DNA from: Narcine bancroftii
Lineage: Eukaryota
Direction: 5' to 3'
Assembly (NCBI RefSeq): GCF_036971445.1
Contig: NC_091480.1
Span: 5,828,001-5,892,000, forward strand
DNA: 64,000 nucleotides
Below the pieces are notes generated by a model. That model was not told the origin of the DNA. It ran no database searches and worked only from the letters and a program-made list of their open reading frames with translations. A program made the position numbers and the translations under genes. This document shows positions 15,068-58,260 of the stretch, piece by piece (the stretch's first letter is position 1; each line of letters starts with the position of its first letter).

Positions 15068-17405
15068 TCACACCAGGAGACGCTCCACTGCCTGTTGAAC
15101 GGACTGTATCTGAGGCTTCAGCTGTGAGCCTTCCTTTATGGTGACAGACGATGCAATGACAGGCCTGCACACGCCGCATGCTCGACCCAGAGCCTGCTTG
15201 GACCTTACAAAGACGTACGGCACATTCTTGTCTTCACACAGAAGCGGTAAATGAAGAATGATCTCTAGGGGTTCAGCATCTGCTGCCATCACGATGAACT
15301 CGGCGATACCTCTGTTCAGTGTCTTGGTTGCTGCAAAGAAAGAGGAGAGGTCAGATCCAGGCAAGGGCAGCTCACCACCCCAGGTAGTGTATCATCTTCC
15401 ATCTCCCCTTGTCACCACCCAGTCTGGGAGGAAAGAACAATTACACCCTGTCACCAACCCCCCCCCCCCCCACAAAAGCTCAAGGCCATGATTACAACTC
15501 CCTCCACAGATTCAGCACCAATCCTCAGGTAACAGATGTCCCCTCCCACCTATCATGCACCTACTCCCCTTCCTCAGAAGGGACACAATGCCACTATTAC
15601 CCATTCTACTAATTGCAATTCCCCAATTTGTTGTGCTGTCCGGCTTGGTGCTAATTGATCGTCTCACTGCAATCTGAAACAACCATGCTCAGTGTTTTTT
15701 TTTTAAATAATTTTTTTATTTTTCACACTATGAACCATATTAATCAAAATACCATGCTCAGTGTTGATGGTCAGTTGTGGTCACCTCACTACAGGATGTG
15801 GACACCACATAAAAAGTGCAGATAGGGCAAGGAAGCTGCCTGGATTGGAAGGCATGGCTGGTGACCAGAGGTTGAGCGGTTGGTCTTTTCTCTTTGCGAT
15901 GGAGGATGAGAATGTACAAGGTAATGAGGGGCATTGATTGTGTGGGTGGCCAGAGGCTTTCTCCTTGGGCTGAAATGGCTAACACATGGGTCAGAGATTT
16001 GTGTTTGGGAGTAAGTGCAGAGGGCTGTAAGAAGTTTTTCAGAGTGGTGGGGGCACATCAGCGATGGAGGCACATCAGCGATGGAGGCAGGTACAATTGG
16101 ATCTTTTAAGAGACTATTAGATAGGTGGGGTTTTTTTTAATTTAATTTTTTAAAAATTTTGACACATAACAGTGTCAGGTCATTTTGACCCACAAGCCTG
16201 TGCTGCTCAATTAACCTACAATCCCTATTATGCTTTGAACAGTGGGAGGAACCCACGCAAACACAGGGAGAATGTACAAACTCCCTACAGACAGCGTGGG
16301 ATTCAAGCCCCAGTCCTGATAAATGGTGCTATAATGGGGCCGAACCAACAGTGTTGCCATCCAACCATGGTGTAGGAAATTCTAGGCAGTTGTTAGAGTA
16401 GGTTATTAAGTCAGTACAACACTGTGAGCCAAAGAGATTTCTATGTTGTAAATTATAAAAACAATGCTGGAGAAACTCGGCAGGTCAGTGCACTTTGTGT
16501 AACAAAGTTTCAATCAGGTTTGAGTCCTTCATCAAGATATAGTCAGGTTCTTTTATCTTTGCTGCATAAAGGACAGTCTTTGACTTGCTGAGTTTCTCCA
16601 GCATTGTCTTTTAACCACGTTGTACTATTTGACAGATAAACTTCCAACCTAATGCAAATGCTAAGAGATTACTTTGTCCTTGTTAAAACCCGTTTCTCCT
16701 CCCAACTGCAGCACAGTTCGACATCAGGAAGCAGATCAGCAATAGCTTAATGGTGCGTCGAATGAACTGGCCAGATTCCCCTCCAACATTACCTTCATTG
16801 GCCCCCTTCCGGAGTTGCTTGTAGTTGCCCGCTTGTTGAACCAGATCCAGTATGGTCCTGGTCAGCTGCGCATCTGCGAGCGGGTAGGCCTTTGGATTCA
16901 CCTCTTGGTCTGTCTGTGATAGAGAAGGACACGGGTTTAGGAGTCAGATCATCACCAAGCCCATTACTTAACTGACCCAGCGCTGGACGAACTCAGCAGG
17001 TACCAGAGATAGAGAAGCAGGCGGAGCCCTTCATCAGGCTCTGTAGGCAGGCGCCCGAGATTCCCCCTCCGCGGGACCTCCCTCCCTTCCCGGGACCTTC
17101 CTCCCCGAGACCCCTCCCCAGGACCCCCCCCTCCCTTCCCGGGAACCTCCCTCCCCGAGACCCCCCCCTCCCCAGGACCCCCCCCCTCCCTTCCCGGGAA
17201 CCTCCCTCCCTGAGACCCCTCCCCAGGACCCCCCCCCTCCCTTCCCGGGAACCTCCCTCCCTGAGATTCCCCTCCTCCCTGGGACTCTCCCTCCCTCCCC
17301 GGGACGACCCCCCTCCCTTCCAGGCGCCGCCTGGCCTCGAGGCCCCTCGGGCCCGCTCCGCCTCTCCATGTGGGCCCGGTCCCGCCGCCGCCGCCCGCTC
17401 ACCAT
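15068..17405 (-). CDS. SNU13: SNU13/NHP2L1 (15.5K), L7Ae-family kink-turn-binding protein of the U4 snRNP and box C/D snoRNPs, 128 aa
   Basis: Exon 1 is the ATG only, 17405-17403, followed by GTGAG. Exon 2 is 16913-16793 ([40 protein letters not shown]) and exon 3 is 15330-15068 ([54 protein letters not shown]...ERLLV*). 3+121+263 = 387 nt. Confidence 0.98.
15697..15750 (-). mobile_element. Extremely 5'-truncated L1-like insertion
   Basis: Poly-T tail plus the family 3' end, flanked by a perfect 15-bp TSD ACCATGCTCAGTGTT (15682-15696 and 15751-15765). Confidence 0.75.
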
Positions 17406-17580
17406 CCTCTCCGCGCCGTGACCCGACTCCCCACCGCCGCTCTCCGCGCCCTCGGTCGCCTCTTCACGGAGGACAGGTCCCGATACGCTGCTCGCCCACC
17501 GCACGGTCCCGCACGCCTGCGACAAGCGCCGACTTCCGCCTCATACTGGGGGTGAGCGCCACCTCCGTCCGGGATGACCC
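17040..17580 (-). promoter_or_regulatory. CpG island / promoter and exon 1 of SNU13
   Basis: High GC and CpG content around the ATG exon, with an ETS-type ACTTCCG motif near 17532-17538. Confidence 0.7.
17070..17320. repeat. C-rich (G-rich on the SNU13 sense strand) ~50-bp tandem repeat, 4-5 copies, in SNU13 intron 1
   Basis: Recurrent unit CCCTTCCCGGGAACCTCCCTCCCCGAGACCCCTCCCCAGGACCCCCCC. Confidence 0.85.
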
Positions 17581-18137
17581 AATGACCGCAGATGCCTTTG
17601 TATAGGACGACCCAACAAAAAAATTATCCTATACACCGGGTCTAGAAATTCTCACCGAAATCTCGACCTTGCCCATGCTCCGTTGTTTATTTGAGGTCTC
17701 AGCGCTCCTCCTTTTCACTTTGGAGCAAAGAAAGATGAGAGGAGACTTGATAGAGGTCGACAAGATTCTGAGAGGCATAGACATGCTGGACAGTCAGCAC
17801 CTGTTTCCCAGAGCAGGATCAGTAAACACCAGAGAACGTGTATAAAGTGAAGGAGGGGAAGTTATTTTATATAGAGAGCTGTGGGTTCCTGGAATGTGTT
17901 GCTGGGATGGTGGTGGAAGCTGCACTTGTTTTGGTCTCACGTACGGGATTTCTTTAGGGGAAGAGAGGAGAACTTCAGTGAAAACAGAACTTCTTCAGGG
18001 TCTTTCAAGTCATTCAAGGTCTTCCTGAAGTCCACGATCATCTCCTTCATTGTGTCTTTCATGTTATAACCATCTTATGACTACTATAAAATAAAATGTT
18101 AGCAATAATGGTGCACGAAAGGTAAGGCAGTTTCTTT

Positions 18138-18421
18138 TTTTAATTAGAATTTTTTTATTTTTCACACTGTGAACCATGTCAACCAAAATACATACCAACA
18201 TTTCCCTCTTAAATATACACAGTGGCATTTTCTCCCCTTTTTTCCCCCCTCCCTTCCCTCCCCCCCTTCCCACCCCCCCCCCCCCAAAACCAATAAACAT
18301 TCAACATATACAACACAATAAAACCATTAAACAATGTCATCACACAATGGAAAATAAACAAGAAAAATGTGTCATCTACTTTTACACACTGGATCAAGTC
18401 ATTTTGTCTTATCATTTTAGG
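18138..18421 (-). mobile_element. 5'-truncated L1-like 3' end inserted into a Rex1 3' end
   Basis: Same 3' end as the 15697 and 59449 copies; 12-bp TSD GGCAGTTTCTTT. Confidence 0.75.
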
Positions 18422-19249
18422 GGCAGTTTCTTTGGTTCATTGATTATTCAGGAATCTGACAGCATTGGGGAAGAAGATGTCCTTGAGCTTCTGAGTGGTC
18501 GCCTTCAGGTTCCTGAACCTTTTCCCTGATGGTAGCGGGGTGAAGAGGCCTTGGTGTCATTACACTATTTAATGGCTGATCTATCTCCCTCCTGTATGCT
18601 TCCTTGTTGCCATTTGTGATTCTGCCATTAGGGCACTGACCCCACCTCCCTTCAGTTCTGTGACCACATCGCCCTGACACACCCCTCTCCGTCTGACCAA
18701 CGGTGACCCTGTCTGTAGACAGCCGGCTGGTGGAACATCAGACTACTCCCAATCCTGCTCCCTGTAGGTCCTGTAGACAGAGGAGGTCACTGGTGACACT
18801 AAACCTTTAGTCTTGGCAGTTTTTTTACTGTTCCAGATCTAAGGGAGGAGTTGGGGGGGGGGGGGGGGGTCCTGTTCTAAAAGGAGGGGTGAATGTGGTG
18901 ATGTTTCCTCCATTGTATCTAGTTAACATTGTCGGTTGTATATTGCCCACAGATGACTCCTACCCGATGACTCCTGCACCATGGTCCTGGGGCCATTCCT
19001 ATCCTGGTTCTTCTGTGTATTAGAGCCTATCGTTCCCTCAGCTTGTCTCTGCGATTACTGGTAGTTCCATACAAGCACATACATCATATGCAACCCTGAG
19101 ATTATTATTCCTGGCGGCACAGCACTTACTGGTCGTGCAAAAATAAACTGTAAACTGATAAAGAATGTAAACAAGCCATGCAATACAGAGACCATCAAAA
19201 AGATCATCAATAAAGAACACCATCATATTGTGCGTGGCATGGAGAAGCT

Positions 19250-21975
19250 GACCGCCATGTTGTGCGTGGCACGGGGACGCGAAGCCGCCATGTAGGGTAT
19301 GGCACGGCGGGGGTGAGCCCGGCCGCCATGTTGTGCGTGACACGGGTACGCGAAGCCGCCATGTTGTTTGTGGCGCGGGGGGGGGAGAGAGCCCGGCCGC
19401 CATGTTGTGCGTGGCACGGGGACGCGAAGCCGCCATGTTGGGTATGGCACGGGGGGGAGGGAGGGGGCGGGGGAGACCCGGCCGCCATGTTGTGCGTAAC
19501 ACGGGTACGCGAAGTCGCCATGTTGTGTGTGGCGCGGGGGGGAGAGAGCCCGGCCGCCATGTTGTGTGTGGCGCGGGGGGGAGCCCGGCCGCCATCTTGT
19601 GCGACACGGGTACGCGAAGCCGCCATGTTGTGTGTGGCGCGGGGGGGAGAGAGCCGGCCGCCATGTTGTGTGTGGCACGGTGGGGGGCGGGGGGGAGCCC
19701 GGCCGCCATGTTGTGCGTGACAAGGGTACGCGAAGCCGCCATCTTGTGTGTGGGGCGGGGGGAGAGAGACCGGCCGCCATGTTGTGTGTGGCGCGGGGGG
19801 GAGCCCGGCCGCCATGTTTTGAGTGACACGGGTACGCGAAGCCGCCATGTTGTGTGTGGCGCGGGGGAGAGAGCCCGGCCGCCATGTTGTGTGTGGCACG
19901 GTGGGGGGCGGGGGGGAGCCCGGCCGCCATGTTGTGCGTGACACGGGTACGCGAAGCCGCCATGTTGTGTGTGGCACGGTGGGGGGCGGGGGGAGCCCGG
20001 CCGCCATGTTGTGCGTGACACGGGTACGCGAAGCCGCCATGTTGTGTGTGGCGCGGGGGGGGGAGCCCGGCCGCCATGTTTTGAGTGACACGGGTACGCG
20101 AAGCCGCCATGTTGTGTGTGGCGCGGGGGGGAGAGAGCCTGGCCGCCATGTTGTGTGTGGCGCGGGGGGGGGGGAGCCCGGCCGCCATGTTTTGAGTGAC
20201 ACGGGTACGCGAAGCCGCCATGTTGTGTGTGGCGCGAGGGGGAGAGAGCCCGGCCGCCATGTTGTGTGTGTCGCGGGGGGGGCCGGCCGCCATGTTGTGC
20301 GTGACACGGGTACGCGAAGCCGCCATGTTGTGTGTGGCGCGGGGGAGAGAGCCCGGCCGCCATGTTGTGCGTGACACGGGTACGCGAAGCCGCCATGTTG
20401 TTTGTGGCGCGGGGGGGGGAGAGAGCCCGGCCGCCATGTTGTGCGTGGCACGGGGACGCGAAGCCGCCATGTTGGGTATGGCACGGGGGGGAGGGAGGGG
20501 GCGGGGGAGACCCGGCCGCCATGTTGTGCGTAACACGGGTACGCGAAGTCGCCATGTTGTGTGTGGCGCGGGGGGGAGAGAGCCCGGCCGCCATGTTGTG
20601 TGTGGCGCGGGGGGGAGCCCGGCCGCCATCTTGTGCGACACGGGTACGCGAAGCCGCCATGTTGTGTGTGGCGCGGGGGGGAGAGAGCCGGCCGCCATGT
20701 TGTGTGTGGCACGGTGGGGGGCGGGGGGGAGCCCGGCCGCCATGTTGTGCGTGACAAGGGTACGCGAAGCCGCCATCTTGTGTGTGGGGCGGGGGGAGAG
20801 AGACCGGCCGCCATGTTGTGTGTGGCGCGGGGGGGAGCCCGGCCGCCATGTTTTGAGTGACACGGGTACGCGAAGCCGCCATGTTGTGTGTGGCGCGGGG
20901 GAGAGAGCCCGGCCGCCATGTTGTGTGTGGCACGGTGGGGGGCGGGGGGGAGCCCGGCCGCCATGTTGTGCGTGACACGGGTACGCGAAGCCGCCATGTT
21001 GTGTGTGGCACGGTGGGGGGCGGGGGGAGCCCGGCCGCCATGTTGTGCGTGACACGGGTACGCGAAGCCGCCATGTTGTGTGTGGCGCGGGGGGGGGGGA
21101 GCCCGGCCGCCATGTTTTGAGTGACACGGGTACGCGAAGCCGCCATGTTGTGTGTGGCGCGGGGGGGAGAGAGCCTGGCCGCCATGTTGTGTGTGGCGCG
21201 GGGGGGGGGGAGCCCGGCCGCCATGTTTTGAGTGACACGGGTACGCGAAGCCGCCATGTTGTGTGTGGCGCGAGGGGGAGAGAGCCCGGCCGCCATGTTG
21301 TGTGTGTCACGGTGGGGGGCGGGGGGGGCCGGCCGCCATGTTGTGCGTGACACGGGTACGCGAAGCCGCCATGTTGTGTGTGGCGCGGGGGAGAGAGCCC
21401 GGCCGCCATGTTGTGCGTGACACGGGTACGCGAAGCCGCCATGTTGTGTGTGGCGCGGGGGGGGGAGCCCGGCCGCCATGTTTTGAGTGACACGGGTACG
21501 CGAAGCCGCCATGTTGTGTGTGGCACGATGGGGGGCGGGGGGAGCCCGGCCGCCATGTTGTGCGTGACACGGGTACGCGAAGCCGCCATGTTGTGCGTGG
21601 CGCGGGGGGGGGGGGGAGCCCGGCCGCCATGTTTTGAGTGACACGGGTACGCGAAGCCGCCATGTTGTGTGTGGCGCGGGGGGGAGAGAGCCTGGCCGCC
21701 ATGTTGTGTGTGGCGCGGGGGGGGGGAGCCCGGCCGCCATGTTTTGAGTGACACGGGTACGCGAAGCCGCCATGTTGTGTGTGGCACGGTGGGGGGCGGG
21801 GGGGAGCCCGGCCGCCATGTTGTGCGTGACACGGGTACGCGAAGCCGCCATGTTGTGTGTGGCGCGGGGGGGGAGCCCGGCCGCCATGTTTTGAGTGACA
21901 CGGGTACGCGAAGCCGCCATGTTGTGTGTGGCACGGTGGGGGGCGGCGGGGGGAGCCCGGCCGCCATGTTGTGCG
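19250..21975. repeat. Compound minisatellite of ~74 YY1-type motifs immediately upstream of UQCRC2
   Basis: Two interspersed unit types share the core GCCGCCATGTT. Type A (33 bp) is GCCGCCATGTTGTGCGTGACACGGGTACGCGAA; type B (~35-48 bp) is GCCGCCATGTTGTGTGTGGCGC(G)nAGAGAGCCCG. A hand count gives 74 cores, with an internal 1034-bp duplication. Confidence 0.97.
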
Positions 21976-22450
21976 TCCCATCGCGACCGGAGACACGGGA
22001 GGATGCGGTCGGTGAGGAGGGTGAACTCAGCGCTCGCAAACTTCACCGTAAGCGGCCTTTGTCTGTGGCTCAGCCCGGTGACCGAGTCACCGTGAGATTA
22101 CTACCGCGCGGCCCCCCCCCCCCCCCACCCGCCACAAACCGAGGAAAGCCCGGTGAGGCCGGCCCCGAGGCCTAGTCCGGTTCCCGAGTTCTCGGCCACA
22201 AGCGTCTGGGTCCTAGAGCCGTCTTCACCCCGCAGAACCGGCTGTTAAACACGGCGGAAACGGGCGGCCGGGCTTGGAGTGCGGATGGTCCCGGGCCGGT
22301 GCCTGAAGGTCATTGATCTGCCGGGCCCGGGGAGGGAGCGCGGGCCCGGGGAGGGAGCGCGGGCCCGGGGAGGGAGCGCGGGCCCGGGGAGGGAGCGCGG
22401 GCCCGGGGAGGGGAGGGGGACGTGATCGCCGTGGGCCCCAAGCCTGTGCT
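21960..22450 (+). promoter_or_regulatory. UQCRC2 CpG-island promoter / exon 1 region
   Basis: CpG-rich. The last YY1-type core is at 21960-21971, the ATG at 22003 and the GTAAGC donor at 22048. Confidence 0.7.
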
Positions 22451-25400
22451 GAAGGTCACATCGTATAGACTGATGCCTGAATGCGGACTCCCTTCCTCCC
22501 TCCCTCCCTCCCCACCGTCCTGGTCCAACACAGGTCAATGTCACCTCTATGCACTGCATGAAGCTGCACGTCCAAATCCCAATTTATTCTCATGAACGGG
22601 TCACCAAATCCGTTGTTTTGCAGCAGTCACAGTGCAAACATTTCGATGAACCACTTTCCAAACACGAAAAGTTGAAGTGAGCAGTGTCTTTGGTTCATTG
22701 ATTATTCAGGAATCTGATGGCAGAGGGGAAAAAGCTGCCCTTGAGCCGCTGAGTGCTTGTCTTTGGGCTCCTGTACCTTTTCCCCGATGGTAGCAAAGTG
22801 AAGAGGGCGTGGCCTGGGTGGTGGGGGTCCTTGAGGAGCGAGGCTGCTGGTGTCTGTAATGTCACAGGCCTAGTTGTCGCCAAGTGATACAACCAGCCAG
22901 AATGCTCTCTACAGGACACCTGTAGAAGTTTACAAAAATCTTTGACTCTCCTCAAACTCCTCACAAAGTATATCTGCTGGCGAGCCTTCTTTGTGATTGC
23001 ATTGACGTAGAGGCTCCAGGACAGATCTTTGAAGTTCTCGACCCTCTCCACTATTGAGCCCTCGATGAGGACTGGGTCATGTTCCCCTGAAGTCCACAAT
23101 CATTTCCTTAGTTTTGTTAAAATTGAATGCAAGGTTGTTGTCATGACACCACTCAACCAGCTGATCTATTTCCCTCCTGTACACTTCTTCATTGCCATCT
23201 GTGATTCTGCCGTCAACTGGTGTCATCGGCAAACTTGTAGAAAGCATTGGAATTGTGCCTGGCTACACAGTCGTGGGTGTATAATGAGAAGAGCAGTGGT
23301 ATAAGCACACATCCTTGGGGTGCGCCTGTGTTGATGATCAGTGAGGAGATGTTATTGTTTCCAATTTGTTGTCTTCTGATAAGGAAGTCAAGGATCCAGT
23401 TGCAGAGGCCCAGGGTTTGGAACATTGACCAGAACTGGGGGAATAATGGTGTTGAAGGCTGAGCTGTATTCAATGAAGAGTAGCTGTATGTATGAATTGC
23501 TGTTTACCAGATGATCCAGAGTTGAGTGGAGAGCCAGTGACATTGCGCCTGATGATTAATAGTTTATTTCTAGCAATTTAAAATGTGTACATGGAGACAC
23601 AAGAGTCCCCAGATGGTGGAATCTGAGCAAAAAGCAGGAAACCAAACTTATCCTTTTCCCTAATAATAGAAACACAGAAATGCTGGAGGAACTCAGCAGG
23701 TCTCATAACCTCCATAGGACTGAACCCTTCTTCAAGGTATAAATAAGAAAGCAGGCAGATGCCGGAATTAAAGGCCGGAGAGAGAAAGGGGAAGACTGGT
23801 AGGGGGAGGAGTCCAGACCAACAGACAAAGGGTGTTAATTGGATTTGATGAGGAAAGGTGAGAACTGATTTTGCTTCTAGGAAAGGAGACAGGGTGAAGA
23901 AGATGGGGGGTGGGGTGGGGTATACCCAGATAGAAGATGAGGTGTTGCTCCAATTTGCGGGTGATCTCAGTCTGGCAGTGCATGAGACCATGGGCAGACA
24001 TGTCAGCGAGGGAAAGGATCGGTGAATTGGAAGGGGTGGCCACTGACTATGGCGGCAGATGCAGCCCATGTAGAAGCAATCCAATACATCAGAGAGACTG
24101 GGTGATCGCTTTTTTAAGCACCTCAGCTCTGTCCACCATAATAGCAATCAAGGTATTGGAACCAGGATTTGAGTGGGTGCTGAGGGCAAGAAGGGCACAC
24201 ATAGGGTCTGAAGGCTTCCTGCTCAATTTGGAAGTTTGGATCTGGGATCTGGAGCCCGGGTTGCTAATGGTTTGGACGAGCCTGTGCCACTGCAGAGGCT
24301 GCAGGAGTGCTGGAGGCAAATCCACGGACACTCACTGTCACAGAAAGGACTCTCTTTTGTTTCTCTTTCTCCTATTGTTAGGCAGTGCTCATGGAAACTC
24401 TCTTTGTCTGCATTATGACAGCCCATAGTTGTAGGATATCAAGCATATTATATTTGTAATGCCTTATTACATGACACAAAAAGGAACCTTTGAATCTTTA
24501 ACCAACAGGGCAGACTTGATGGGCTGATTGGCCTCCCGTTCATCTGTTTCTCTACTTCAAACCTTCATTTTTGTAATTCCTCTTCATTTTATCTCTGTGC
24601 TTTCTCTAAACCAGCAATTTTTTAAAAAGCTTTGATCATTCAGGATTAATGACCTGCCTTCCAGGAGCATTCAATCCTGTTTTTATTGCAGGCAACAAGG
24701 TTTTATTCGTCCAAACTCGCACCCAAGAATGAGTTTGCAGCGGCTGCAGAGAAGCTCCCACCTCAGGAGCCGGAGGTCAGTGAAATTCAGAACAGTTTGT
24801 TTTATAGAAGCATGATTTCACCTCTGTCGTTTTGAGGGACTTTCTTGAAGGTGAAGAATTATTGCCCACTTTGAGTAGATACTTGCAGAGATGGATGTGT
24901 TGGGGTATGGGAGCATGGTGGCAAGGTGGCTGCTGTAACCTGGAATAAAACACGACAGTCTACAGGCACCGTGAATGAAGTAAAAACACATTGCTGGGGA
25001 AACTCGGTAGGTCAAACGGTGTCCTTTATGTAGTAAAGATAAAGGTATGTAACCAACATTTTGGGCTTGACCCCTTCATCAAACTACGAGCAATATGTAG
25101 ACACGCCATATTTCTTCAGGCTTCTGAGGACGTGTAGTTGTTGGTGTACCATAGCATCAATGTGGTTAGTCTGGGGCTGTTGGTGATTTGTACGCCTAAA
25201 AGCTCAAAGGTCTCCGCTCCTCAGCCCATTGAAACAGACAGGGCCATGCGCTACTCCCCACTTCCTGAAGTCGATGATGACCTCTTCCTCTCTTGCTACT
25301 CTCTGAATCCATCATTCAACACGACACTTAGTCAGATTTATGGATAGGAAGAGCTTAAAGGGATATGGACCAAATGCAGGCAGATGGTACCAGCCTGGAA

Positions 25401-28400
25401 TTCCAAGTGGTTGACATGGATGAAATGGGCTTAAGGGCTTCTTCTGTGCCCTGTGACAAGATTGGATGGTTTGTGCTTTGCTGCATGTCAGTTCACTAAG
25501 CTGGTCAGTAGCTGAGACCTGTTGAGCAGAAGGTTTAAAAAGCAGGAGCATCACTCGGGCTGTTTAGTTCCCCCTCCTTTTAGATTTGAATGTTAAGATC
25601 GAGCAGGGGTGAGGGTGCAGTGGAAGTATGGAACTGTGGAGTAGGAGAGGTCTGCAAATCACTGAGAAATCAGTATAGCATTACAGGAGTTGGTCATCCG
25701 GCCCGTCAAGCCTGCTCTGCCATTCAATGTGATCATGGCAGATCTGATGATTGGCTCATCTCCATCTATCTGGCTTTTCCCCATCCAGTTTCCTTAATTC
25801 CCTTACGATGTAAAAATCTATCCAACCTTGTCTTAAATACATGTTCTGAGGTCACCTCCACTGCTTCAATGGGCAGCGAATTCCACAGATTCACCCCCCT
25901 CTGGGAAAAGCAGTTCCTGCTCATCTACTACCCTGAATCTTGAGGCTATGATCCCTCATTCTAGGCTCTCCCACCAATGGAAATAACTTGCTTACCTATA
26001 TCTTATCTATGCCTGTCATAATTTTTTATATTTCCATAAGATTCCGCTCATTCTTCTGAATTCCAGGAAGTACAGTCCTAGCTGACTCAATATCTACTCA
26101 GGCTAGCTCCCTCATCCCTGGAATCAACCTGGTGAACAGCCTCCGCACTGCCTCCAAAGCCAGGACATCTTTCCCAGAACTGCATGCAGTATTCCCAATG
26201 TGGTCTCACCAGTGCCTTATACAATTGCAACACGACCTCCCTGCTCTTAAGTTCATTTTCTCCAGCAATGAAGGCCAATGTTCCATTTGCCTTTTTGAAA
26301 CCCTGCTGCACCTGCAAACCAACCTTTTGCAATTCATGCTCAAGCCCTCCCAAGTCCTTCTGCACGGCAACACGCTGCAATCAGTTGCCATTTAAATAAT
26401 ATTCTGATCTTAATTTTTTTCATCCAAAGTGGATAACCTCACATTTACCAACATTATACTCCATCTGCCAGATCCTTGCCCACTCACTTAACCTATCGAT
26501 ATCTCTCTGCAGACTCTCCTTATCCTCTGCACAATTTGCTTTTCCACTCTATTTGGTGTCATCAGCAAACTTAAATACACGACACTAACCCTAACCCTCT
26601 TCCAGATCATTTATGTATATTGTAAAAGATGTTCCCTGCACTGAATGAAACTCCACTCAGCTGACCTGATGATTTCAAGTTCATGAAGACCTTCAAAATG
26701 GGTTGGGTGGTGAAGTCCCTGTTGTGACGAGAAGGAATGTTTTAACAAAGTATTTCCCCATGAACATCAGTGATCATTCCATATTGGTTGGGCATTGAGA
26801 AAAGTTCCCTCTCCGTATATTGGCAGACGAGAGCAGTGCAACTTGAAAACTAAGACCATTGGCAACACAGCACTGGGCCAGTACTGCTCTGTGGAGCTCA
26901 GATCCCTGGAGAAGGAATAGTTCCAAACAGACCACGAGTGTAGGTTAATGGGATGTAAATTGGGTGGCATGGGCTGAAAGGACTTGTTACCGTGCTGTAT
27001 ATCAAAATTAAAATTTATGTACTTCACCATTAGCAGATGTGGTTTTTTGGATTCTCTGGACAGGTGTTGAGGTGAAATACCTTTCAAAGGCCACTGGCAC
27101 CTTTCACTCTATCAGATATTAACAAAGATACTTCAAAGTGTCACAAAATATCACAACAAGAGGAAATGGAGTTGTTTTTCTGGGAACGTGTTTAGTCAGG
27201 ATTTAGTGTTTGGTGTTTGTAGTAATTTGGCTTTTCTCCAACAGGTGTCGAAATTGCCAAATGGATTGGTGATCGCCTCCCTGGAAAATTACTCTCCAAC
27301 CTCAAAGATTGGAGTCTTCATAAAGGCGGGCAGCAGATACGAGACTACCAGTAACCTGGGAATCACCCACGCCCTGCGTTTGGCAGCAAACCTTGTGAGT
27401 AAAGATCAACAGAAAATGTCTTGATGAGGCTTCTTCAAAATTACACGGCTCTGTGGACTATAATTAATTGGGAATTAACAAGGCTTGGAAAAGTTAGGTC
27501 ATGTTTTAAACTGTCCAGTTAAAGTATCTTGTTCGTGTTAAGCTTGTGAGCTGCCGATCTCACTAGTCTTGCCTTACTTGTTCTTTCCCACGAATATTTG
27601 TGCACCGCATGGACTAATTAGCTGGGTAATTGCAGTCACCAGTCAACCTTGGATCTGGAGCCACATACAGACCAGATCAGAAAGGCAGATATCACAATGG
27701 GCATTTGTGAAAAGTAAAAAGCTAGAGATGACAGAAATCTGCACCAAGTGATGGACATAACTCAGCATGTCAAGCAGTAGTCACAGTTGGAGAAACTGTT
27801 TAAAACAGCTATTCTTGACGTTTTCTTTTAGGCTGTGGTCTCCTGAAAGTTTATGGGCCTCCTTCGCTGCGAAGCAGTATGATTCAGTTGGCTTCTTCTG
27901 TACTTCTGTCCTCCAAACCACATTAAAAAAAACATGATTTCAGGTTCAGGAGCCCCCTTAAATGTGCTGTGGACTCCCAAGGGTACTGTATGGCCCCTGT
28001 TGAGAATGGCTGGTTTAAATTTCTGTTTTTATTTTAGAATTCCATCATCTACAGAATTTTTTCCTCTTGAGTCAACTGGATGGGGGGATGGGTTAGTGAC
28101 AACAGTCCAGCTGTTTCGTGGATGCTAGTTCTTCTCCCTCCAAGTTTAACACTTGGTTTCATTGTTGATATTTTATCCTTATGCAAAGGCTGATATTTTT
28201 ACAACTTGTGTGTGGTTGAAATAACTGATTACTGGAATAACTCTTTCAGTCATAGTTATGTTTTCAGTGCACTGTTTTATCATAAAGCCTCATCATTTTA
28301 GTGGAGATTCAGTTTGTAACATTTTGGAGAAAAACAAAGCTCTCTGCATCATTCTTGGAGAGTTCAGAACTGCCCATGAAGTTAATTGCAATCACTCACC

Positions 28401-31400
28401 AAACCCTCTTTGATTTGCAGACAACAAAGGGAGTTTCATCATTCAGAATAACCCGTGGCATCGAAGCTGTTGGGGGCAGTTTGAGGTGAGTCTCTTTAAC
28501 TTGTGCTCTATTCCTGTCCTTGCCAACTCCTAATAGTGGGAGTGCATCAGCGGGGAGTGTGTCAGTGGGGAGCAGATTCCTGGAAACATGGATTTGCACA
28601 AGGCAGTCGATTCCGAGCCAGAAGTGGTTCATTCATCTGCTGCAGAAACACTGATGTGCCAGACTCAGTACTGCCATCTTCCAGGTGCATTGCTGAACCA
28701 GGGTTCTGCCTCCGTGTGGGCTTAAAAAAAGTCTTTGTTCTATAGAAGGACAAGTAGTACGATACCCAAACAATTCCCATTGCCAAAAATCACAGAATCG
28801 AGCATCTTATCAATATCACATCATTGCTGCACCTCCTGGAATGCAATGGTCATTGCCTGTCAGAAATATCTTGTGGACATTGAGGTTTTGTGTGAGATTG
28901 AGGGAAAATAAAACTGTATAAAGTCAGTAAAAACACAATGCTGGAGAAACTGAGCAGGTCAAACGGTGTCATTTTTTCTGTAAAGATAAAGGTACAGAAT
29001 ATGGAGTACATCACAAAAGTCTGCAGATTTTCTCTATACTGTTTGACCTGTTGAGTTTTTGCAGCATCATGTTTTTATTACTTGTCTTTTAAAATATTTT
29101 TATTGGTATTCAATATAGAAACAATTGAACGATACAATTATACAAGGTGCAAAAAATATGGGGAAAAAATTTCAAATATGAACTTAATTCAAAGGACCAA
29201 CGCACAAGTAGTAAAATATGACATCAAACAAAAAGAAAAAACCCAACCCAAAAGAAAGAGAAATAAAGGAAAGAAAGGAAGAATAAAGTTAGTTCTTTTC
29301 AAATGAATAATAAAAGGTATATGATTATCTTTCCTTCTCTTCTCATACTGTAAGAATGATCAAAAGTTGCATTGTTCATGGTTGAGCAAAGCCATTACCT
29401 GTTATTTAGTTTAAAATATGAATTTTTTAGATTAGATATTTACAAATTTGACATTTTGATCAATCATAGATCCCTGATTTTCTGCAAATTCCCGAGGCCA
29501 ACGCTCTTGATTTACAACTTTCTCATAAAGGTTCACTATCTATTATTTGTAATAACTTGCTGGATTTCAGAATAGCTTCGTTAGTTAAGACCAAGAACGA
29601 CTGAGAACAGGATTTGAATATATAATTTTTGGATGAAGTTTGGGACCAACCTTTGTGCATGACACTGTTGCAATTTAAAATTAAATTGTCTTATTTTTAT
29701 TCTGATATAAATCCTCTGTAATAAATGCAGATTTGCTGAGGCTTCCTTAAATCCACATTGAAAGATATTTTTCAGATATTATTAGTGGACACATTAGAAC
29801 CTTGGCCTTCAATTGCTATTTTCAGAAGATGAAATCTTACTAACTCCAGCTCAAATTCGAATTTTATCTTTTACTATGGATAGCCAGACGTGCAATTCTG
29901 ATTAAATGGAAGACATTACTCCAACTTCACACCCACAATGGCTAAATGATATCGTGTCTTATTATCTAAGTTTGGCAGGCGGGTAATGAACAGACAGGGG
30001 TGGAACTTACTCCTGTGAGTCTGTAACACGTCATCAGTTGCGGGTGGGACTCCCCCTACATTTCTGGGGAGGGCAAATTCCCAGGAGTTTGGACCACAGT
30101 GTGAAAGGCCCAGGAGGTCCTGAATTCCTGGGAATTTCTCTGGGACAAATTAGAGTCACTGATTGCCTGCGGTGTGAAAATGCCTATTTCCTAACCTTGC
30201 TTCATAGTCAGGGTTTTGTCCCATAATGGGGGGTGGGTTAGGTTTCCTTTTATTTCAATCACTGTGAGTGTAGACTTTTGTATTTTACTCTTGTATAAAC
30301 CTGACAGTGTACAGGCCAGATGTGTATGACAAAAACTGCAAGAGTGCCTTGTGTTTTCAGTTGTTCAATACTCTTGCAGCCTAATGGAAATTTCAAGTTT
30401 AGTGGCAAAGATCAAGTCTCACTGACAACTGGTTGAGATGGAGATCCCACTCATGGTAAGTTTATGAGGGTTGCCCTTGTCAGTCAGTTTAAGTGAATGA
30501 CTGCTGTACTGAAATTCTCATGTTCAGGAAAATCTTGCCCACTTCATTGCCAGTTGTATTTTTCCCTACCTCTATGTGTTGAGTTGCTTTGAGATATGGG
30601 GTAAGTTGATTAACGATTTAAGATGTATTTTCAAGTACACAAGATATTGTGGAAAAATGTTCTTTGTCTTGCCCTATAAAGCAATAAGCCAGCAATAATT
30701 CAATGAGAAAACGGGAAGCAGAAGAGAGTATTTCAAAGGCATTGTAGTTGTTGATCTTGTCCTCTGATGTCGCCTCCTCTGGCAGTCCATCACCTCTATG
30801 GCTGGCTCATGTTATTCAGTAGTGAACCTAAGCTTGAAGCCCCATATCCGTAGTCAAGAAGCCAGCTCACTATCTCACCTACATCAGTCCAAGACCCAGT
30901 TGCATCAGCCTGTGGCCTGGCCCTGAGTCTTTGAATGTGGAGCCCGCCAGAGCAGCTGCATTTAGCTGCTTGCCCTCAATACAACAACATGGTGAGACTC
31001 CCTGATCTCAGCATTCCCATGGTTCGGCCTCAGCGGACATGGGCTGCTGCTGTGCTTCGGTACAGAGCCCCTCTGAGTCGCTCCCTTATGCTGGGAACAT
31101 GAGGCTTGTGTATGTGTGGAAGCTCCACAGTTTAGAAGTGATCAACCCTTTCTGCTTTTGCAGCGTGACCTCAACAAGGGAGAACATGACCTACACAGTG
31201 GAATGTATGCGAGACTATGTGTGAGTATTGGGCCACTGCATATTGCATCATGTCAATCCTCCTGAAGGTTGGGAAATTACTCCAACTCTTATGGACCCAT
31301 CTATGGAATGGGAAGGGAAACCAGTTCGATGGGTTCAAAGAGCAATGAGTCTGGACACAGGCTGAACATAAGAATACGTCAGGGATTGTAACGGGGAATA

Positions 31401-34400
31401 CATGCACGAGTACTCTCAATCACAAAATAGGACAGGAAGTCCTTAAAAAATTAATGATCTCAGGTTTTGATCCATAAATTGGGCTGGGGTTTCATTTGAT
31501 TTTGCTGTACCAGTTTTAACAAATCCTGTTTGTGGCTGGACTAAGGTTATTTGGGTGCACTGTTTGGTGATAATTGGGGGAATGGATATTTTGGGAGGGA
31601 TCAGGCAATGGTTTGAGAATACCACACACTGTAATCTGGCAGACCAAGCCTTTATAGAAACTATCTTTGAATTTGCTGTGTTTCTAGTTTAACACAATTT
31701 AATCTCACCATGATTAGGAATTGCTGCTGCTTCTAATCACTGACTCCCGTTCCCCCATTCCACCCCAGTGACACGGTAATGGAATATCTGATCAACGTTA
31801 CTGCTGCCCAGGAGTTCAGGCCATGGGAACTGGCGCAACTTCCTCCAAAGCTTGAAGTGGACAAGGCCGTCGCCTCTCAGAACCCACAGATAGGTGAGAT
31901 TTGGAAGGTCCAGTTCAGTCAGGCTGACATACATTTGAGGTCATCATGCATTAAGATTGTTGCTTCAGTCGGGGAGGTGTGTGTGGGGATCATTCTGGGA
32001 GTGTGGGTGGATGGCATTGGGTAGAGTTGGCACTTAATGCCTGTTGTGCACTCTTGCATCCATGGGTTGCCATTCGGGCCATCATCTATTCCAACTCCTG
32101 GTGTGTTCCTATTGGTCCCCTTGTTTCTCTGACCCACCTTCCCCACTGATCTTCCTGCAGTACAAAAGTGTCATTTGCAGAAACCTGCCGATTCCCATGT
32201 CTTTGAAATATGGGAGGAATCCCAAAGGGTTTCCAGATGGAACTGCACACCCTGCACAGACAATACTTGACATCCTTGAATTAGTCATTGTCCCAGAGAT
32301 TTACAGCATGGAAATAAGCCATTCAGCCCATGCTGACCAAGATGGTCTCATCTGCCTGCATTTGTCCCATATTCCTCTGAACTTTTCCTAGACATGTAGC
32401 TGTCTAAATATCTTTTGAATATTGCAATTGAGCCTTCGCTCTCATTTCCTCATGCCCACCACTCCCTGTGTGAAGGAGGTAACCCTAGGGTCCGCTTTAA
32501 ATCATTCTCCTCTCACCTTAAATTCATAAGTGATCAAACTACTGGTTGCAAACTACTGATCCCAGATCATCTCTGTTCAGCAGCTGTAGAAAGCCTGCAC
32601 TATGAACAGCTTGGAACAGGATCTTTGTAGACTGATGCAATAACATGGAGGTAGCAAACCAATGAGTATCACGGCAACTTGCTTTCTCTTTTAAGGTGTC
32701 TCTGAAATTTCATGTTTGAGTAATTTCTTGCAAATCCACCAGAGGTCGCTGTATGTTGGAAACTGCAGAGCTCACAAAACTGACAGGATCAAAAGAAGCT
32801 GTTGTATCATGGAAAGGCCTTGGTGATTGTGTTGAATCCCTGGCTGTGGAGGTTTTAAGCTTGCCGAACTTGCTTTGCCTTCTAAGAAAGCAGAAATGTT
32901 GGTGCTATTGCTTGGCCGTCGTGTCATGCTTGTCCCAGGACAGGTCACTGGAGATGTTTTACTCCTGAGGACAGAAACTATCTCCACTTTACACTTCAGT
33001 GCCATTAATGTGGGCAGGTCTATGAACTCTACCCCCTCTTCTGGTCAACAATTTTCCTTTGTCTTATTGAAATTGAGAAGGGGGTTTAGATAAACTGATG
33101 ACTTTTTGCTATCAATTGTTAGCCTGTTTCCAGGTGACTGTAGCCGGCTTGTAATAAAATACAAAGGAACAACATCTGAAATATGAAGGGTTCTGCTTGG
33201 GTTGTCAGTGTTCAAGCAAGGTGTTGCCAGAGCTCCAGTGCAGATGGACTCGTGTTGCAGAATGTGGATCAGTCACCTTTGATACTTCATTCCATGGCTC
33301 AGCAGGCTTGTGCCTGGTTAGGGATCAGAATCAATTGCTGCCAGGTTTAACCCTTACTGAGTTAGTTGCTCTCACTGGAATCTGTGTTAGCATCTCTAAT
33401 AAGGATCCTGGTTTAAGAAGAGATCTTTTGATTAATGTGGTCATCTCTGTTTAGAAGGAGCCCATTGGGTCCATGATAGCTCTCAAGAAAGTAATCCTAT
33501 CCCAACAAACTCCAACTGCCCATAGATAATCCATCCGAACAGTAAACCTGGCCACAGCCTGTCACTGATGCTACTTTATCCATCTCTTACACCCCACCTA
33601 CACCCAAGGGCTTGGGTTTAAGGTGAGGAGTAGAGCTCCAGAGAATCTGAGGAAGATTTTTTCCCTCACTCAGAGTCTGGAACACACTACCTGAGAAGGT
33701 GGTGGAGGCAGTAATTCTCACGACGTTTAAGGAGCACTTGAGTGAGCAAGCAAATCATAAAATCTTAAGAAGTAGAAGCAGAGTCGGCCTCCTGCCCCGT
33801 CGAGCCTCCTCTGCTGTTCAATGACATCAAGGCTGATCTGGCTGTGGACTCAGCTCCATTTACTTGCCTCTTCCCCATAACCCTTAATTGCCATACAATG
33901 CAAAAATCTATCTGTGCCTTAAGTATATTTAATAAGGCAACCTCTGCTGCTTCCTTGGGCAGAGAATTCCACAGATTCACTGCTCTTTGCCTTCTCCAGT
34001 ACCTGCTCTTAATCAATTAACAGCCCGCGTTTTACTATGGAAAGCGACAGATCTTTTTGTGTTGTTCAGGCGTCCTGGAGAACCTGCACTCAGCTGCTTA
34101 TCGTAATGCCCTGAGCAACTCCCTCTACTGTCCAAAGTTTATGATTGGGCAGCACACATCAGAGCAGGTAAGAAAAAAAACACCACTCTCCACCAGGGAA
34201 ATCTTTGAAAGGGTTAAATATTGACGATTGTCCCTGATGTGCCAGTGTGTGTTTGTCTCCACAGCTGCACCATTTTGTGCAAAGTAATTTCACAACTGGA
34301 AAGATGGCTCTTGTAGGACTGGGTAAGTGTCATATCTGCAGAATATTGTTCATTGCCATGCGTATGGAGAGACTGAAATACTTTGTCTTTAACCATTTTT

Positions 34401-37400
34401 GTTTAAAATTGGTGTGCAATCTTGCACTTGATTAAGTTAAAGCTCATCATTCCAGTATGGAATTACTATATTCATACGCTGTCGTGTTGGTAAGAGTATC
34501 CGATTCGGTGGGTTTGCAGAGGGACCAAGTCTGGACACACAAGAAACAAATGGGACGATCATTATTTCGCTTAAGTGATGATGCAGACATTCACCTTGGA
34601 CTTCAGTTGGATTCTGACACTGGGAAACCTATACTCAATCTGCTCACACAGTACAAACAGGGACTCTTTTACACACTCACACCCACTTCCCTGACCAATG
34701 GGGTTGCAGCGCTCTGAGTAACGACTTATCCAGTACTAATGGGTCAGCTTCAGTGTAGTGCACACCTTACCTGTTACACTTCCAGCAATGTCCATGGTAG
34801 TGACCTGGCATAGAGCGATGACCGGAGCTTGGACCACAAGGCAGAGAGCGAGAGTGTGCTGTGCAATGGTGTTAGATACAGTGCTAATCTGTTTCTAGCC
34901 AATAATGGTCCTAGATTATTTAAATGAGTCAATGACAAGTTGTGCACTGATGGATGGCTGGAGTCCAACCTTGATTGACAGGCGATGTGACTTCCTAATA
35001 AGTTTCAGTCAGGGAGGACACGTGACCACCCACAATACACACATTCCAGACAGGCAGGGAGACCACGTTTCCTCCACACACAACACATGTGAACAGTTGA
35101 ACATGGTAGGGGTGCTGCAGGGTCCGATTCCCCTTGGATTTGTGTTCAATTCACGGTGTTGCTGGTCTTCACCCACAGGTGTGAGCCATACAGTCCTGAA
35201 ACAGTTGGGCGAGCACTACTTCAACATGAGGAGTGGTTATGGTGAAGCTGGTGCTGCAGCCAAGTATCGTGGAGGTGAGATTGGTGGTGCATGGGTCCAG
35301 GTAACTGGCTAGGGGCCACTTTGTACTCGTACCCATTGACAGTTTAACTAAAGCGCAGGCGAACTTTGGGACCTTGGGCATGTCCTTTCCCAGTCAATAT
35401 CAGACTCCAGAATGAACCCCCACATAGTAAAATCATGGGGCCGTACTATTTAATCTCTCTCTGCAACTCTCCACTTTCATACTGTGTCAGACTTGTTGCA
35501 TGAGGTGTCGACTGATCAGCTTGCAAAACAACCTCTCTCACTGCATCCTTTGATACATGTGACAATAAATGTGAACCTGAATTTGATTAGCTCTCCTCAC
35601 TGATGTAGCTCAGGTAATTCCATCTGGTACAAGAACATGAAGAACAGAAGCAAGAAGAATCAGAACATTAGGGGGTTCCTGGGCAGATCTTTGCCTCAAC
35701 TCTGTTTTTGGCTTGTTGAGAAACACAAGAATTCTGCTTGAACTCTATTTCTGTTCTGTTTCAATTGTATAATCCCTACATTGGAGGGATAATTACAACT
35801 CTTCATCTTGAAAACTTCTACAGGTTTACTGTAGAGAGCATTCTGGCTGGTCCATCACTGTCTGGTGTGGAGTTGCCAACACACTCAGGACAGGGGAAAA
35901 AACTCCAGAGAGTGGTTAACTCAGCTGTGACATCACGGGCACCAGACTTTACTCCTTTACTCCATCAAGGATGTCTACGAGAGGCGGTGTCTTAAAAAAA
36001 GCAGCCTTTATCCTCAGGGACCCCCCCCCCCCCCAAAAAACCCAGGCCATGCCCTCTTCACTCTGCTTCCATCGGGAAAAAGGTCCAGGAGCCTGAAGAT
36101 GAGCACCCAGTGGCACAAGGACAGCTTCTTCCCCTCTGCCATCACATTCCTGAATAATGAACCACAGATATTACCTCACTTTGACTTTTTGTGCACTATT
36201 TTTTATTTATTGTTGTAAGGTGGTTTTATATCAATGTTTGCACTGTGATTCTGCCACAACAATGAAGTTTGTGACTTGTTCATGACAATAGATTCTGATT
36301 CTAGAGTCAGAGAGTACAGAACAGGCCCTTGGGCCCAATTCATCCATACTGACCAAGTTGGCATTCTGGACTAATCCCATTGGTGTGCATTTGGCCCACT
36401 TCCTTCCAAACACATCTGTCCAAATATCGTTCCTACATCATAATTGCTCCTGCTTCTATAGCTTCATCTGGCAGCTTGTCCCAGATCCAGCCTATCCTCC
36501 AGAAGAAAAAGATTCCCCTCAGGTCACTCTTGAGGGAAACAAAGCCCTTTCCCACTCCTAAAAAAAGTGCAGCCACTGCCTAAATAATTCCCAGGCTTCA
36601 GGTTCTGGAATATTGGGGTGGTGCTGTTAGTGCCAGCAATCAGGACCAGGGTTCAAATCCCACGCTCTCTGTAAGCTTGTATATTCTCCCCTTATGTAAG
36701 TGAGTTTCCTGCCGGTGATCAGGTTTCCTCCCACTGTTCAAAATGTACCGGGCGATTGTAGGTCAATTGTGCAGCACAGGCTCATGAGCCAAAAGGACCT
36801 GTTACTGTGCTGTACGTCCACTTTAAAATGTAATACCCTCCCCAAACCTCTCGCCAACACTTCTGACACCTGATTCTCCGAGCAAGAGTTTAAAATCTCA
36901 ACCATGATCCCAAGGCTCCTGTCAAATTTTATCAGACTTGATATCCTTTCGCTCTTAATATACTTGAAGAAACCCTTGGGATTTTCGTTAATATTTTCTG
37001 CCAAAGCACATCTCCTTCAAACCTTACCCCTCCCCCCTCCGTTACTGCTTCCTTGGACAGAGAATTCCGCAGAATCACCACTCTCTGGGAGAAATAGTTC
37101 CTCCTCATCTCTGTCCTAAATCTACTCGCACAAAATCTTGATGTTCTGTCCCCAACAGTGGAAACAACTTCCCTGTTTTGATCTTATCTATTCCTTACAT
37201 TATTTTATATGTTTCTAAACCCCAGGCTACCCAATCACTCCTCATAACCCTTATTTCCAAAATATTCATTCTAACTATGCCCCATGTATTGACTTATAAA
37301 GCTGGGTAAGGTGGGTGGTGGTAAGGATCAAGCTCATCTTTCTTAGCTTCGATTTCTTTGAATTTGTGCGTCTGCAGGTGAAATCCGCGATCAGAACAAT

Positions 37401-56647: not shown

Positions 56648-58260
56648 TCTTCTTCGCGGTCGAAGATTTATGGAGGGGTAATGTCCACTTCAGCTGCAGG
56701 CTCGTTTGTGGCTGACAAGTCCGATGTGGGACAGGCAAACACGGTTGCAAAGGAAAATTGATTGGTTGGGGTTGGGTGTTGGGTTTTTCCTCCTTTGTCT
56801 TCTGTCAGTGAGGTGGGCTCTGGGGTTTTCTTCAAAGGAGGTTGCTGCCCGCCAAACTGTGAGGCGCCAAGATGCACGGTTTGAGGCGAGATCAGCCCAC
56901 TGGCGGTGGTCAATGTGGCAGGCACCAAGAGCTTTCTTTAGGCAGTCCTTGTACCTCTTCTTGGTGCACCTCTGTCTCGGTGGCCAGTGGAGAGCTCGCC
57001 ATATAACACGATCTTGGGAAGGCGATGGTCCTCCATTCTGGAGACGTGACCTACCCAGCGCAGTTGGATCTTCAGCAGTGTGGATTCGATGCTGTCGGCC
57101 TCTGCCATCTCGAGTACTTTGATGTTGGAGATGAAGTCGCTCCAATGAATGTTGCGGATGGAGCGGAGACAACGCTGGTGGAAGCGTTCTAGGAGCCGTA
57201 GGTGATGCTGGTAGAGGACCCATGATTCGGAGCCGAACAGGAGTGTGGGTATGACAACGGCTCTGTATACGCTAATCTTTGTGAGGTTTTTCAGTTGGTT
57301 GTTTTTCCAGACTCTTTTGTGTAGTCTTCCAAAGGCGCTATTTGCCTTGGCGAGTCTGTTGTCTATCTCGTTGTCCATCCTTACATCCGATGAAATGGTG
57401 CAGCCGAGATAGGTAAACTGGTTGACCGTTTTGAGTTTTGTGTGCCCGATGGAGATGTGGGGGGGGGGGGGCTGGTAGTCATGGTGGGGAGCTGGCTGAT
57501 GGAGGACCTCAGTTTTCTTCAGGCTGATTTCCAGGCCAAACATTTTGGCAGTTTCCGCAAAACAGGACATCAAGCGCTGAAGAGCTGGCTCTGAATGGGG
57601 AACTAAAGCGGCATCGTCTGCAAAGAGTAGTTCATGGACAAGTTGCTCTTGTGTCTTGGTGAGAGCTTGCAGGCGCCTCAGATTGAAGAGACTGCCATCC
57701 GTGCGGTACCGGATGTAAACAGCGTCTTCATTGTTGAGGTTTTTCATGGCTTGTTTCCGCATCATGCTGAAGATTGAAAAGAGGGTTGGTGCGAGATCGC
57801 AGCCTTGCTTCACGCCATTGTTAATGGAGAAGGGTTCAGAGAGCTCATTGCTGTATCTGACCCGACCTTGTTGGTTTTTGTGCAGTTGAATAACCACGTT
57901 GAGGAACTTTGGGGGGCATCCGAGGCGCTCTAGTATTTGCCAAAGCCCTTTCCTGCTCACGGCGTCGAAGGCTTTGGTGAGGTCAACAAAGGTGATGTAG
58001 AGTCCTTTGTTTTGTTCTCTGCACTTTTCTTGGAGCTGTCTGAGGGCAAAGACCATGTCAGTAGTTCCTCTGTTTGCGCGAAAGCCGCACTGTGATTCTG
58101 GGAGAACATTCTCGGCGACACTAGGTATTATTCTATTTAGGAGAATCCTCGCAAAGATTTTGCCTGCAATGTGATTCAGCGTGATTCACCTGTAGTTTGA
58201 GCAGTCTGATTTCTCACCTTTGTTTTTGTACAGGGTGATGATGATGGCATCACGAAGGTC
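56648..58260 (-). mobile_element. RTE-clade LINE, 5'-truncated, with a largely intact RT, inserted in a hAT-like MITE (56604-56647 and 58261-58319)
   Basis: 372-aa ORF with FVDLTKAFD, GVKQGC.LAPTLF, LLFADD, FTYLG and QLRWVGHV.RM; short GAAGAA-type tail. Confidence 0.92.

Follow-up and report, generated by a model that had tools for sequence, protein, structure and literature searches.

How a promoter accommodates dozens of copies of one of its own elements is the question raised by a locus of the electric ray Narcine bancroftii, where 74 tandem units with YY1-type cores end directly before the start codon of the respiratory-chain gene UQCRC2. The window analyzed here is the whole stretch of 64,000 nucleotides covering positions 5,828,001 to 5,892,000 (forward strand) of contig NC_091480.1 in RefSeq assembly GCF_036971445.1. 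The original prediction, made from the sequence alone, described a promoter element amplified into a variable-number array that may act as a copy-number- or methylation-dependent rheostat, YY1 sink or insulator for UQCRC2 and its neighbor SNU13. Our analysis favors, with a probability of roughly 0.58, a minisatellite born at the promoter that would bind YY1, disperse transcription starts, provide alternative first exons and be largely tolerated by its host gene.

The array and its position before UQCRC2

A scripted scan identified 74 CGCCAT cores between 19253 and 21970, on the + strand throughout, which confirmed the predicted 74 same-orientation sites in 2.7 kb. The YY1 consensus of the literature, CGCCATNTT, was matched by 73 of the 74 cores, in line with the original prediction; the exception was unit 2, in which one T is changed. 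Over the full window the pattern occurred 74 times, the one additional match lying at 25104, so that the 61.2 kb outside the array contained a single YY1-pattern match. Dinucleotide shuffles of the window contained 1.09 matches on average and 4 at most. The array and its edges are laid out as follows.

19251..21976, + strand: 74 tandem units, of which 30 are type A, 43 type B and 1 terminal
19322-20355 (units 3-30) to 20356-21401 (units 31-58), + strand: higher-order duplication, from unit comparison
21960..22002, + strand: terminal unit 74 with unique leader, likely the ancestral single site
19218..19250, + strand: decayed "unit 0" bounding the array distally; it has lost its core and adjoins an interspersed-repeat fragment that ends at 19215

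All units measured 31-52 bp, and therefore every unit has a core; type A units were 31-33 bp long and type B units, which contain G-runs, 33-52 bp. The two types are homologous across at least their first 23 bases. Two spacer types thus exist as predicted, but their alternation is loose, with no AA neighbors and 13 BB neighbors. The putative GC-box GGGGCGGGG, attributed to many type-B spacers, was present, but with only 13 occurrences among the 43 type-B units. The CCATCTT core, named as the main variant with four copies, did occur four times, but as two variants, each doubled by duplication; the commonest variant of the 12-mer core was a G>T change at its last base (10 copies).

The duplicated blocks of 1034 and 1046 bp differed by no substitutions, one 2-bp indel and one 10-bp indel, and G-run lengths agreed in 26 of the 28 unit pairs. 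This duplication, covering 28 units, is recent. After G-runs were collapsed, the 73 non-terminal units represented 23 distinct alleles; together with the block duplication, this places the independent information in the array far below 74 sites. Head-to-tail units within the 10-100 bp range, interspersed variants and higher-order duplication characterize the array as a minisatellite. It also constitutes a cluster by the ECMFinder rule (at least three cgCCATntt per 500 bp, at most 5 kb from a start site; PMC2665242); its 73 exact matches occupy 2.7 kb and stop 32 bp short of the ATG.

Over its full length, unit 74 aligns with a type-A unit, and it runs on into the unique leader, a continuity that fits origin in place. 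No unit copy was found elsewhere in the 64-kb window, the best outside matches being 9-20 bp, and an Rfam scan of 14-26 kb revealed no family. The proposal of an amplified promoter element was therefore supported, and within the 64-kb window the unit did not behave as a dispersed satellite. From the end of the last 9-mer (21970) to the UQCRC2 ATG (22003) the gap is 32 bp, where about 30 bp had been predicted. CpGs are dense and little decayed, as described, with an observed/expected ratio of 1.01 (309 CpGs) versus 0.1-0.7 in 1-kb bins from which two large arrays were excluded.

The gene on the + strand was identified as UQCRC2, since its exon 3 matched bc1 core protein 2 structures at 1e-20, while core 1 and MPP scored no better than 1e-7. 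Of 399 matches, the closest was Narcine bancroftii UQCRC2, and the internal exon blocks were identical to N. bancroftii RefSeq proteins, boundary overhangs aside. Exon matches bore out the predicted identities of both UQCRC2 and SNU13, and the best matches of UQCRC2 to cartilaginous fish agreed with the presumed non-mammalian vertebrate source. The surroundings of the array comprise the following features.

22003..22047, + strand: coding part of canonical UQCRC2 exon 1 (MRSVRR...), start conserved in other cartilaginous fishes
24692..45090, + strand: UQCRC2 exons 2-14, mapped as 13 tblastn blocks; the exon 2 acceptor lies at 24692 (phase 0)
15068..17403, - strand: SNU13 coding exons (ATG 17403; 16913-16793; 15330-15068), with their own CpG island at ~17000-17800
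17711..19215, no strand: CpG-poor spacer that separates the SNU13 promoter from the array and contains interspersed-repeat fragments

SNU13 and UQCRC2 are arranged head to head, 4.6 kb apart; in human, the two genes lie on different chromosomes. A promoter shared with SNU13 was not supported: SNU13 has a separate CpG island, 1.8 kb from the array, and about 1.6 kb of CpG-poor, repeat-bearing DNA lies between. The predicted action of the array on SNU13 is weakened by the same island at its ATG (17403). With this spacer on its distal side, the array and the 32 bp that follow it are the sole CpG-island DNA upstream of the UQCRC2 ATG.

Start codons, splice donors and annotated isoforms

Where the variable position of the core is G, the core creates a sense ATG in a GCCGCC-ATG context, which is a strong start context; this was the case in 70 of the 74 units. 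Type-A units in addition carry a 5' splice donor, and RefSeq models place first exons within the array.

19346..21909, + strand: 5' splice donors of 27 type-A units, with GTs from 19346 to 21904
21919..22047, + strand: first coding exon of isoform X1, starting at the unit 73 ATG and reading across unit 74 and the canonical start without leaving the frame
21772..21834, + strand: first coding exon of isoform X2 (a B+A unit pair), most proximal of 5 places, spliced to exon 2
21817-21834, + strand: first exon of isoform X4 (18 nt, one A unit), most proximal of 15 places, spliced to exon 2
22285..22308, + strand: first coding exon of isoform X3, an alternative one within the CpG island of intron 1

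The donor was found in 27 of the 30 type-A units. Because it is absent from units 1, 5 and 33, it is probably a derived gain that spread with the array. Its match to the usual donor consensus (6/9 positions) equals that of the canonical exon-1 donor (6/9). When each core ATG was followed to the next donor, 29 of the 74 units were in frame with exon 2, 28 reached a stop first, 13 were out of frame and four had no ATG. An in-frame stop variant of type A accounted for 10 of the 27 donor-bearing units, and the unit 74 ATG (21966) was out of frame with UQCRC2.

The protein cluster contained four N. bancroftii UQCRC2 RefSeq isoforms, of which X1, X2 and X4 begin at array ATGs. The N-terminus of X1 matched the window exactly over 43 residues, and the UniRef entry for X2 counts two records. 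By the usual definition of variable first exons, X2 and X4 would fit as RefSeq models, and the sequence contains 27 donors. Taken together, the annotated isoforms starting in the array and the annotated splicing of the type-A donor suggest that the array probably serves both as a multi-start promoter and as a pile of very short first exons. Up to the conserved RFYS, the N-termini of X2 and X4 contain no acidic and two to three basic residues; because these ends are acid-free, contain Arg and lead into RFYS, mitochondrial import may persist. The first donor could also be reached by transcripts reading through from farther upstream. When four candidate first exons were folded as RNA, they revealed no special structure (z-scores -1.2 to +1.0).

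Among UQCRC2 proteins of other cartilaginous fishes (27 named proteins, 22 species), none had a repeat-derived N-terminus, a protein comparison that does not determine whether the array exists in those species. A protein search with the plus-strand repeat translation returned 0 of 676 candidates at E<=0.01 and was uninformative, the N. bancroftii isoforms having been missed as well. In Callorhinchus milii (elephant shark), the predicted UQCRC2 proteins P0012 and P0142 carry an 8-residue extension starting with ML before the conserved start, which could be a trace of an ancestral upstream core with an ATG. As a separate observation on annotation, none of the four RefSeq proteins (XP_069761586/587/589/590) begins at the conserved ATG at 22003; the reference UQCRC2 N-terminus has probably been mis-set by upstream repeat ATGs. 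On the minus strand, 19038-22097 contains stop-free frames of 699-1019 codons in which each core reads ATG followed by Ala codons, probably a by-product of unit composition.

Constraint, methylation and the competing explanations

Substitutions were evaluated by counting each distinct event once over 53 unambiguous columns (all of type A and the first 20 of type B). The eight specified cgCCATntt positions in A and B carried 1 of 17 events, where 5.1 were expected (p=0.019), and the YY1 placement was the lowest of 12 mask placements; a post hoc removal of edge units 1-2 gave 0 of 15 events (p=0.005). The spared positions correspond to both TT bases and the CpG, which matter for binding in electrophoretic mobility shift assays reported for the mouse L1 Tf motif (PMC11602158). 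Type-A positions 27-33 were invariant too. The predicted contrast between variable spacers and an invariant core held for the G-runs of type B but not for type-A spacers, whose per-copy mismatch was 3.8% versus 3.6% for the 12-bp core; this per-copy count was rejected because it is pseudo-replicated, and it showed no difference in any case. The proposed core-versus-spacer check thus gave a hint, short of proof, of weak selection on the YY1-critical bases, and no signal per copy or for the 12-mer as a whole.

Transitions affected 2 of 18 CpG columns in the array versus 4 of 4 in a control array (Fisher p=0.002), which consists of nine 35-bp units at 1246-1565 within an intron of a kelch-repeat gene. 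This spectrum suggests that the array was unmethylated in its germline history; an unmethylated-looking spectrum leans against an imprint-like element and weakens the methylation-dependent role originally predicted. Edge unit 0 showed several C>T/G>A changes, and the distal units retained their CpGs. An intronic 19-bp minisatellite at 61478-62475, far from a CpG island, likewise consists of 52 near-perfect copies with 104 CpGs intact. CpG density as proof of function was rejected because this array keeps 104/104 CpGs, and its value as evidence in the original prediction is reduced accordingly.

The reading that we favor would proceed as follows. A 33-45 bp module with a YY1 site just before the start codon would have been tandemly copied and split into types A and B, growing perhaps by slippage and unequal exchange, with the 1-kb block duplication as its latest step. 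The array would stay an unmethylated CpG island, as its mutation spectrum suggests, and within the boundaries given above the promoter DNA preceding the UQCRC2 ATG would, repeats aside, consist almost entirely of it. By analogy, it may work like the monomers of mouse L1 Tf, so that YY1 on the cores could support dispersed initiation at or near many units. Transcripts started in the array would meet strong-context ATGs, and the type-A donor would join exon 2, as in the RefSeq models; the N-termini of in-frame products would perhaps still be imported into mitochondria. The host gene would for the most part have tolerated the expansion; weak selection would preserve the YY1 bases, and the proximal few units would probably give most of the output.

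Published work on YY1 is consistent with parts of this scheme. The zinc fingers of YY1 are reported to be almost unchanged across vertebrates (PMC1904287), and YY1 is described as binding human UQCRC2 among respiratory-chain genes (PMC10786316). YY1 sub-motifs can serve as initiators on either strand.

Several points weigh against a YY1-binding, multi-start array. In the common activating mode of YY1, the orientation of the array sites would presumably point toward minus-strand initiation. Human YY1 is reported to activate mostly just downstream of the start and with strand bias (PMC11269187, PMC11160661, PMC13017510), and in HeLa cells it is reported to repress UQCRC2 (PMC10786316). A literature search found no published binding test of the N=G site variant. 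In the substitution test, which left B tails, B G-runs and unit 74 outside its columns, an equally low minimum arose somewhere in 15% of permutations, giving p=0.15 for any placement, and the 12-mer core showed no constraint (6 of 17 events, 7.7 expected, p=0.28). The CpG comparison relied on a single, small control of nine units that is more diverged than the YY1 array, and the share of CpG transitions among all substitutions did not differ (2/26 versus 4/22, p=0.39). The first exons of X2 and X4 fit 5 and 15 identical places, respectively, so that the unit used is indistinguishable. RefSeq alternative variants normally require read support. RefSeq X isoforms are described as computed, with alignments mixed with ab initio prediction (PMC12605758).

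The array might instead be a neutral passenger, with the last one to three units acting as an ordinary YY1 promoter, the rest drifting, and the isoforms reflecting leakiness or annotation noise. We regard this as possible but doubtful. Within the window, Tandem Repeats Finder detected no fewer than six further arrays, ~90 bp to 1 kb in size, of which two lie in the SNU13 and UQCRC2 CpG islands, and shark genomes are reported to contain more simple tandem repeats in GC-rich parts and on small chromosomes (bioRxiv 2022.10.17.512540). Drift is also compatible with a single duplication having yielded 28 units, with type-A spacers as uniform as the cores, and with the stop variant in 10 of 27 donor units, which would be disfavored if short open reading frames were selected. 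Neutrality is harder to reconcile with YY1-critical positions being the least mutated placement, with distal units that retain CpGs while edge unit 0 decayed, and with three of four annotated isoforms starting in the array.

At the opposite extreme, the array would be a 74-copy cassette of YY1 site, start codon and splice donor, every unit serving as a micro-promoter and a first exon. The number of units, their type (in-frame, stop or out-of-frame) and their methylation would then jointly determine how much UQCRC2 is made and with which targeting peptide; selection in electric rays would act on this, possibly in a sex-linked manner given the XY linkage group. This version appears unlikely. A selected dosage device, in the sense of the originally predicted rheostat or of an element like those of Peg3, Xist or P. 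picta, is likewise unlikely; in it, copy number or allele- or sex-specific methylation would set YY1 occupancy and thereby UQCRC2 output, perhaps tied to the XY linkage group or to the energy demand of the electric organ. CpG methylation is reported to lower YY1 binding (PMC11602158), and on the X of Poecilia picta a YY1-motif expansion accompanies dosage compensation (PMC10760456). The little-decayed CpGs of the array are contrary to what a germline-methylated element should show, and the single YY1 match in the 61.2 kb outside the array is unlike a chromosome-wide wave.

The chromosome setting bears on the same explanation. The RefSeq record carrying UQCRC2 is 103,180,129 bp long, the length given for chr12, which is reported to be supported as the XY linkage group, with X/Y-diverged signal confined to one central region (PMC12265721). 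Chr12 is described as a fusion of the ancestral X block with chromosomes that were once autosomes (bioRxiv 2025.02.26.637739). UQCRC2 lies on records of 39-55 Mb in skates, zebra shark and sevengill shark, which suggests, without proving it, an ex-autosomal segment; the locus is likelier to be in the ex-autosomal, recombining part of chr12, a setting that would speak against the dosage device.

An assembly artefact, in which the array or at least its 1-kb duplication was falsely expanded by joining two alleles, is very improbable for the array. G-rich repeats are hard to assemble, and the 1-kb blocks differ by no substitution; that the block alone is artefactual is also improbable, though to a lesser degree. 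The 10-bp indel and the G-run match in 26 of 28 pairs are not expected from random read error, the 23 distinct alleles and decayed edge unit point to a real history, and 46 units remain without the block. A dispersed satellite or transposon-derived repeat landing at the promoter by chance is the least likely of these explanations: although an interspersed-repeat fragment adjoins the distal edge and transposons are reported to carry YY1 motifs (PMC11602158, PMC10760456), the window has no other unit copy, no Rfam family was found in 14-26 kb, and the terminal unit passes without a break into the unique leader before the conserved start.

Known systems and further features of the window

The closest parallel to the proposed YY1-binding, multi-start array is mouse L1 Tf, whose tandem monomers are reported to be synergistic, to need the YY1 motif and to be methylation-sensitive (PMC11602158); that study leaves it open whether the Tf start site is determined by YY1. 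Both arrays are head to tail, lie upstream of an open reading frame and carry one same-orientation YY1 motif per unit, GTCGCCATCTTG on the sense strand (PMC11602158). Tf differs in being a retrotransposon with ~3.5 much longer monomers and the motif at nt 77-88 (PMC11602158), whereas in the ray a host gene present in single copy is preceded by 74 units of 31-52 bp, with N=G, ATGs and a splice donor. Thus the monomer and motif layout is shared with L1 Tf, but UQCRC2 exon 1 takes the place of a LINE-1 5' untranslated region with ORF1/ORF2.

Clusters of YY1 sites are known from mammals, with ~10 sites reported in the Peg3 differentially methylated region (PMC4196374), five in XIST P2 (PMC4363909) and clusters at 31 conserved loci that include housekeeping genes (PMC2665242), among them non-imprinted ones such as Psmb5. 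Like the ray array, these consist of tandem-repeat-derived cgCCATntt sites near a promoter, in some cases bidirectional (PMC4196374, PMC4363909, PMC2665242), and the XIST cluster overlaps an internal promoter with several starts (PMC4363909). Clusters of the Peg3/Xist/Nespas type comprise ~5-10 sites, are conserved in position across mammals and, where imprinted, are allele-methylated, whereas the ray array has 74 sites and looks unmethylated. Uqcrc2 and Nhp2l1 were absent from the seven supplementary files of PMC2665242 that were text-searched. The predicted insulator role is weakened by a Peg3 review that reports YY1 sites without enhancer-blocking activity (PMC4196374).

In P. picta, YY1 motifs were likewise multiplied by repeats in a fish and on a sex linkage group, but there they are reported to be dispersed, transposon-borne and chromosome-wide, with sex-biased methylation (PMC10760456). 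The ray element is one local tandem array, probably outside the X/Y-diverged region, and within this window dispersal of that type was not seen (one match in 61.2 kb). The claim that no such array is described in a non-mammalian vertebrate therefore needs qualification, as the P. picta expansion is known, but stands in that the latter is transposon-dispersed. A literature search over top-ranked open-licence PMC and bioRxiv titles found neither a YY1 array in cartilaginous fish nor minisatellite units used as repeated first exons.

Variable number tandem repeats in promoters or 5' untranslated regions (INS, TYMS, CSTB, HRAS1) resemble the ray array in having GC-rich tandem units beside a start site. 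Variable-first-exon clusters such as the protocadherins and UGT1A join several first exons to shared downstream exons, as the ray models do; known variable first exons are large, diverged coding exons, whereas the ray units would be near-identical and 18-144 nt long. The novelty lies in the size of the array, in its setting at a host gene and in the annotation of its units as first exons; tandem-repeat-derived YY1 clusters were already known. The 74 sites compare with ~3-10 in the published clusters considered here, and the array seems to be almost the entire upstream promoter of an essential respiratory-chain gene. If the isoforms are real, a minisatellite would be creating dozens of interchangeable first exons and would offer a natural series relating YY1 site number, orientation and methylation to start-site choice and output outside mammals. 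If the array is neutral, it shows to what extent a housekeeping gene tolerates amplification of its promoter and warns that UQCRC2 RefSeq N-termini are repeat-derived.

Further repeats and open frames were observed in the window. GC-rich repeats lie in intron 1 of SNU13 (17063-17318, 51 bp x 3.8) and of UQCRC2 (22322-22412, 19 bp x 4.8); both promoters in the window have spawned local repeats. Another array, 31 bp x 15, occupies 39004-39470 in a UQCRC2 intron. Two exon-like open frames on the minus strand (45903-46682 and 62818-63201), which gave no Pfam match, probably belong to a gene tail to tail with UQCRC2. A scaffold gap of 200 N lies at 58897-59096, and 56938-58185 on the minus strand holds a LINE reverse-transcriptase frame of 415 codons (Pfam RVT_1).

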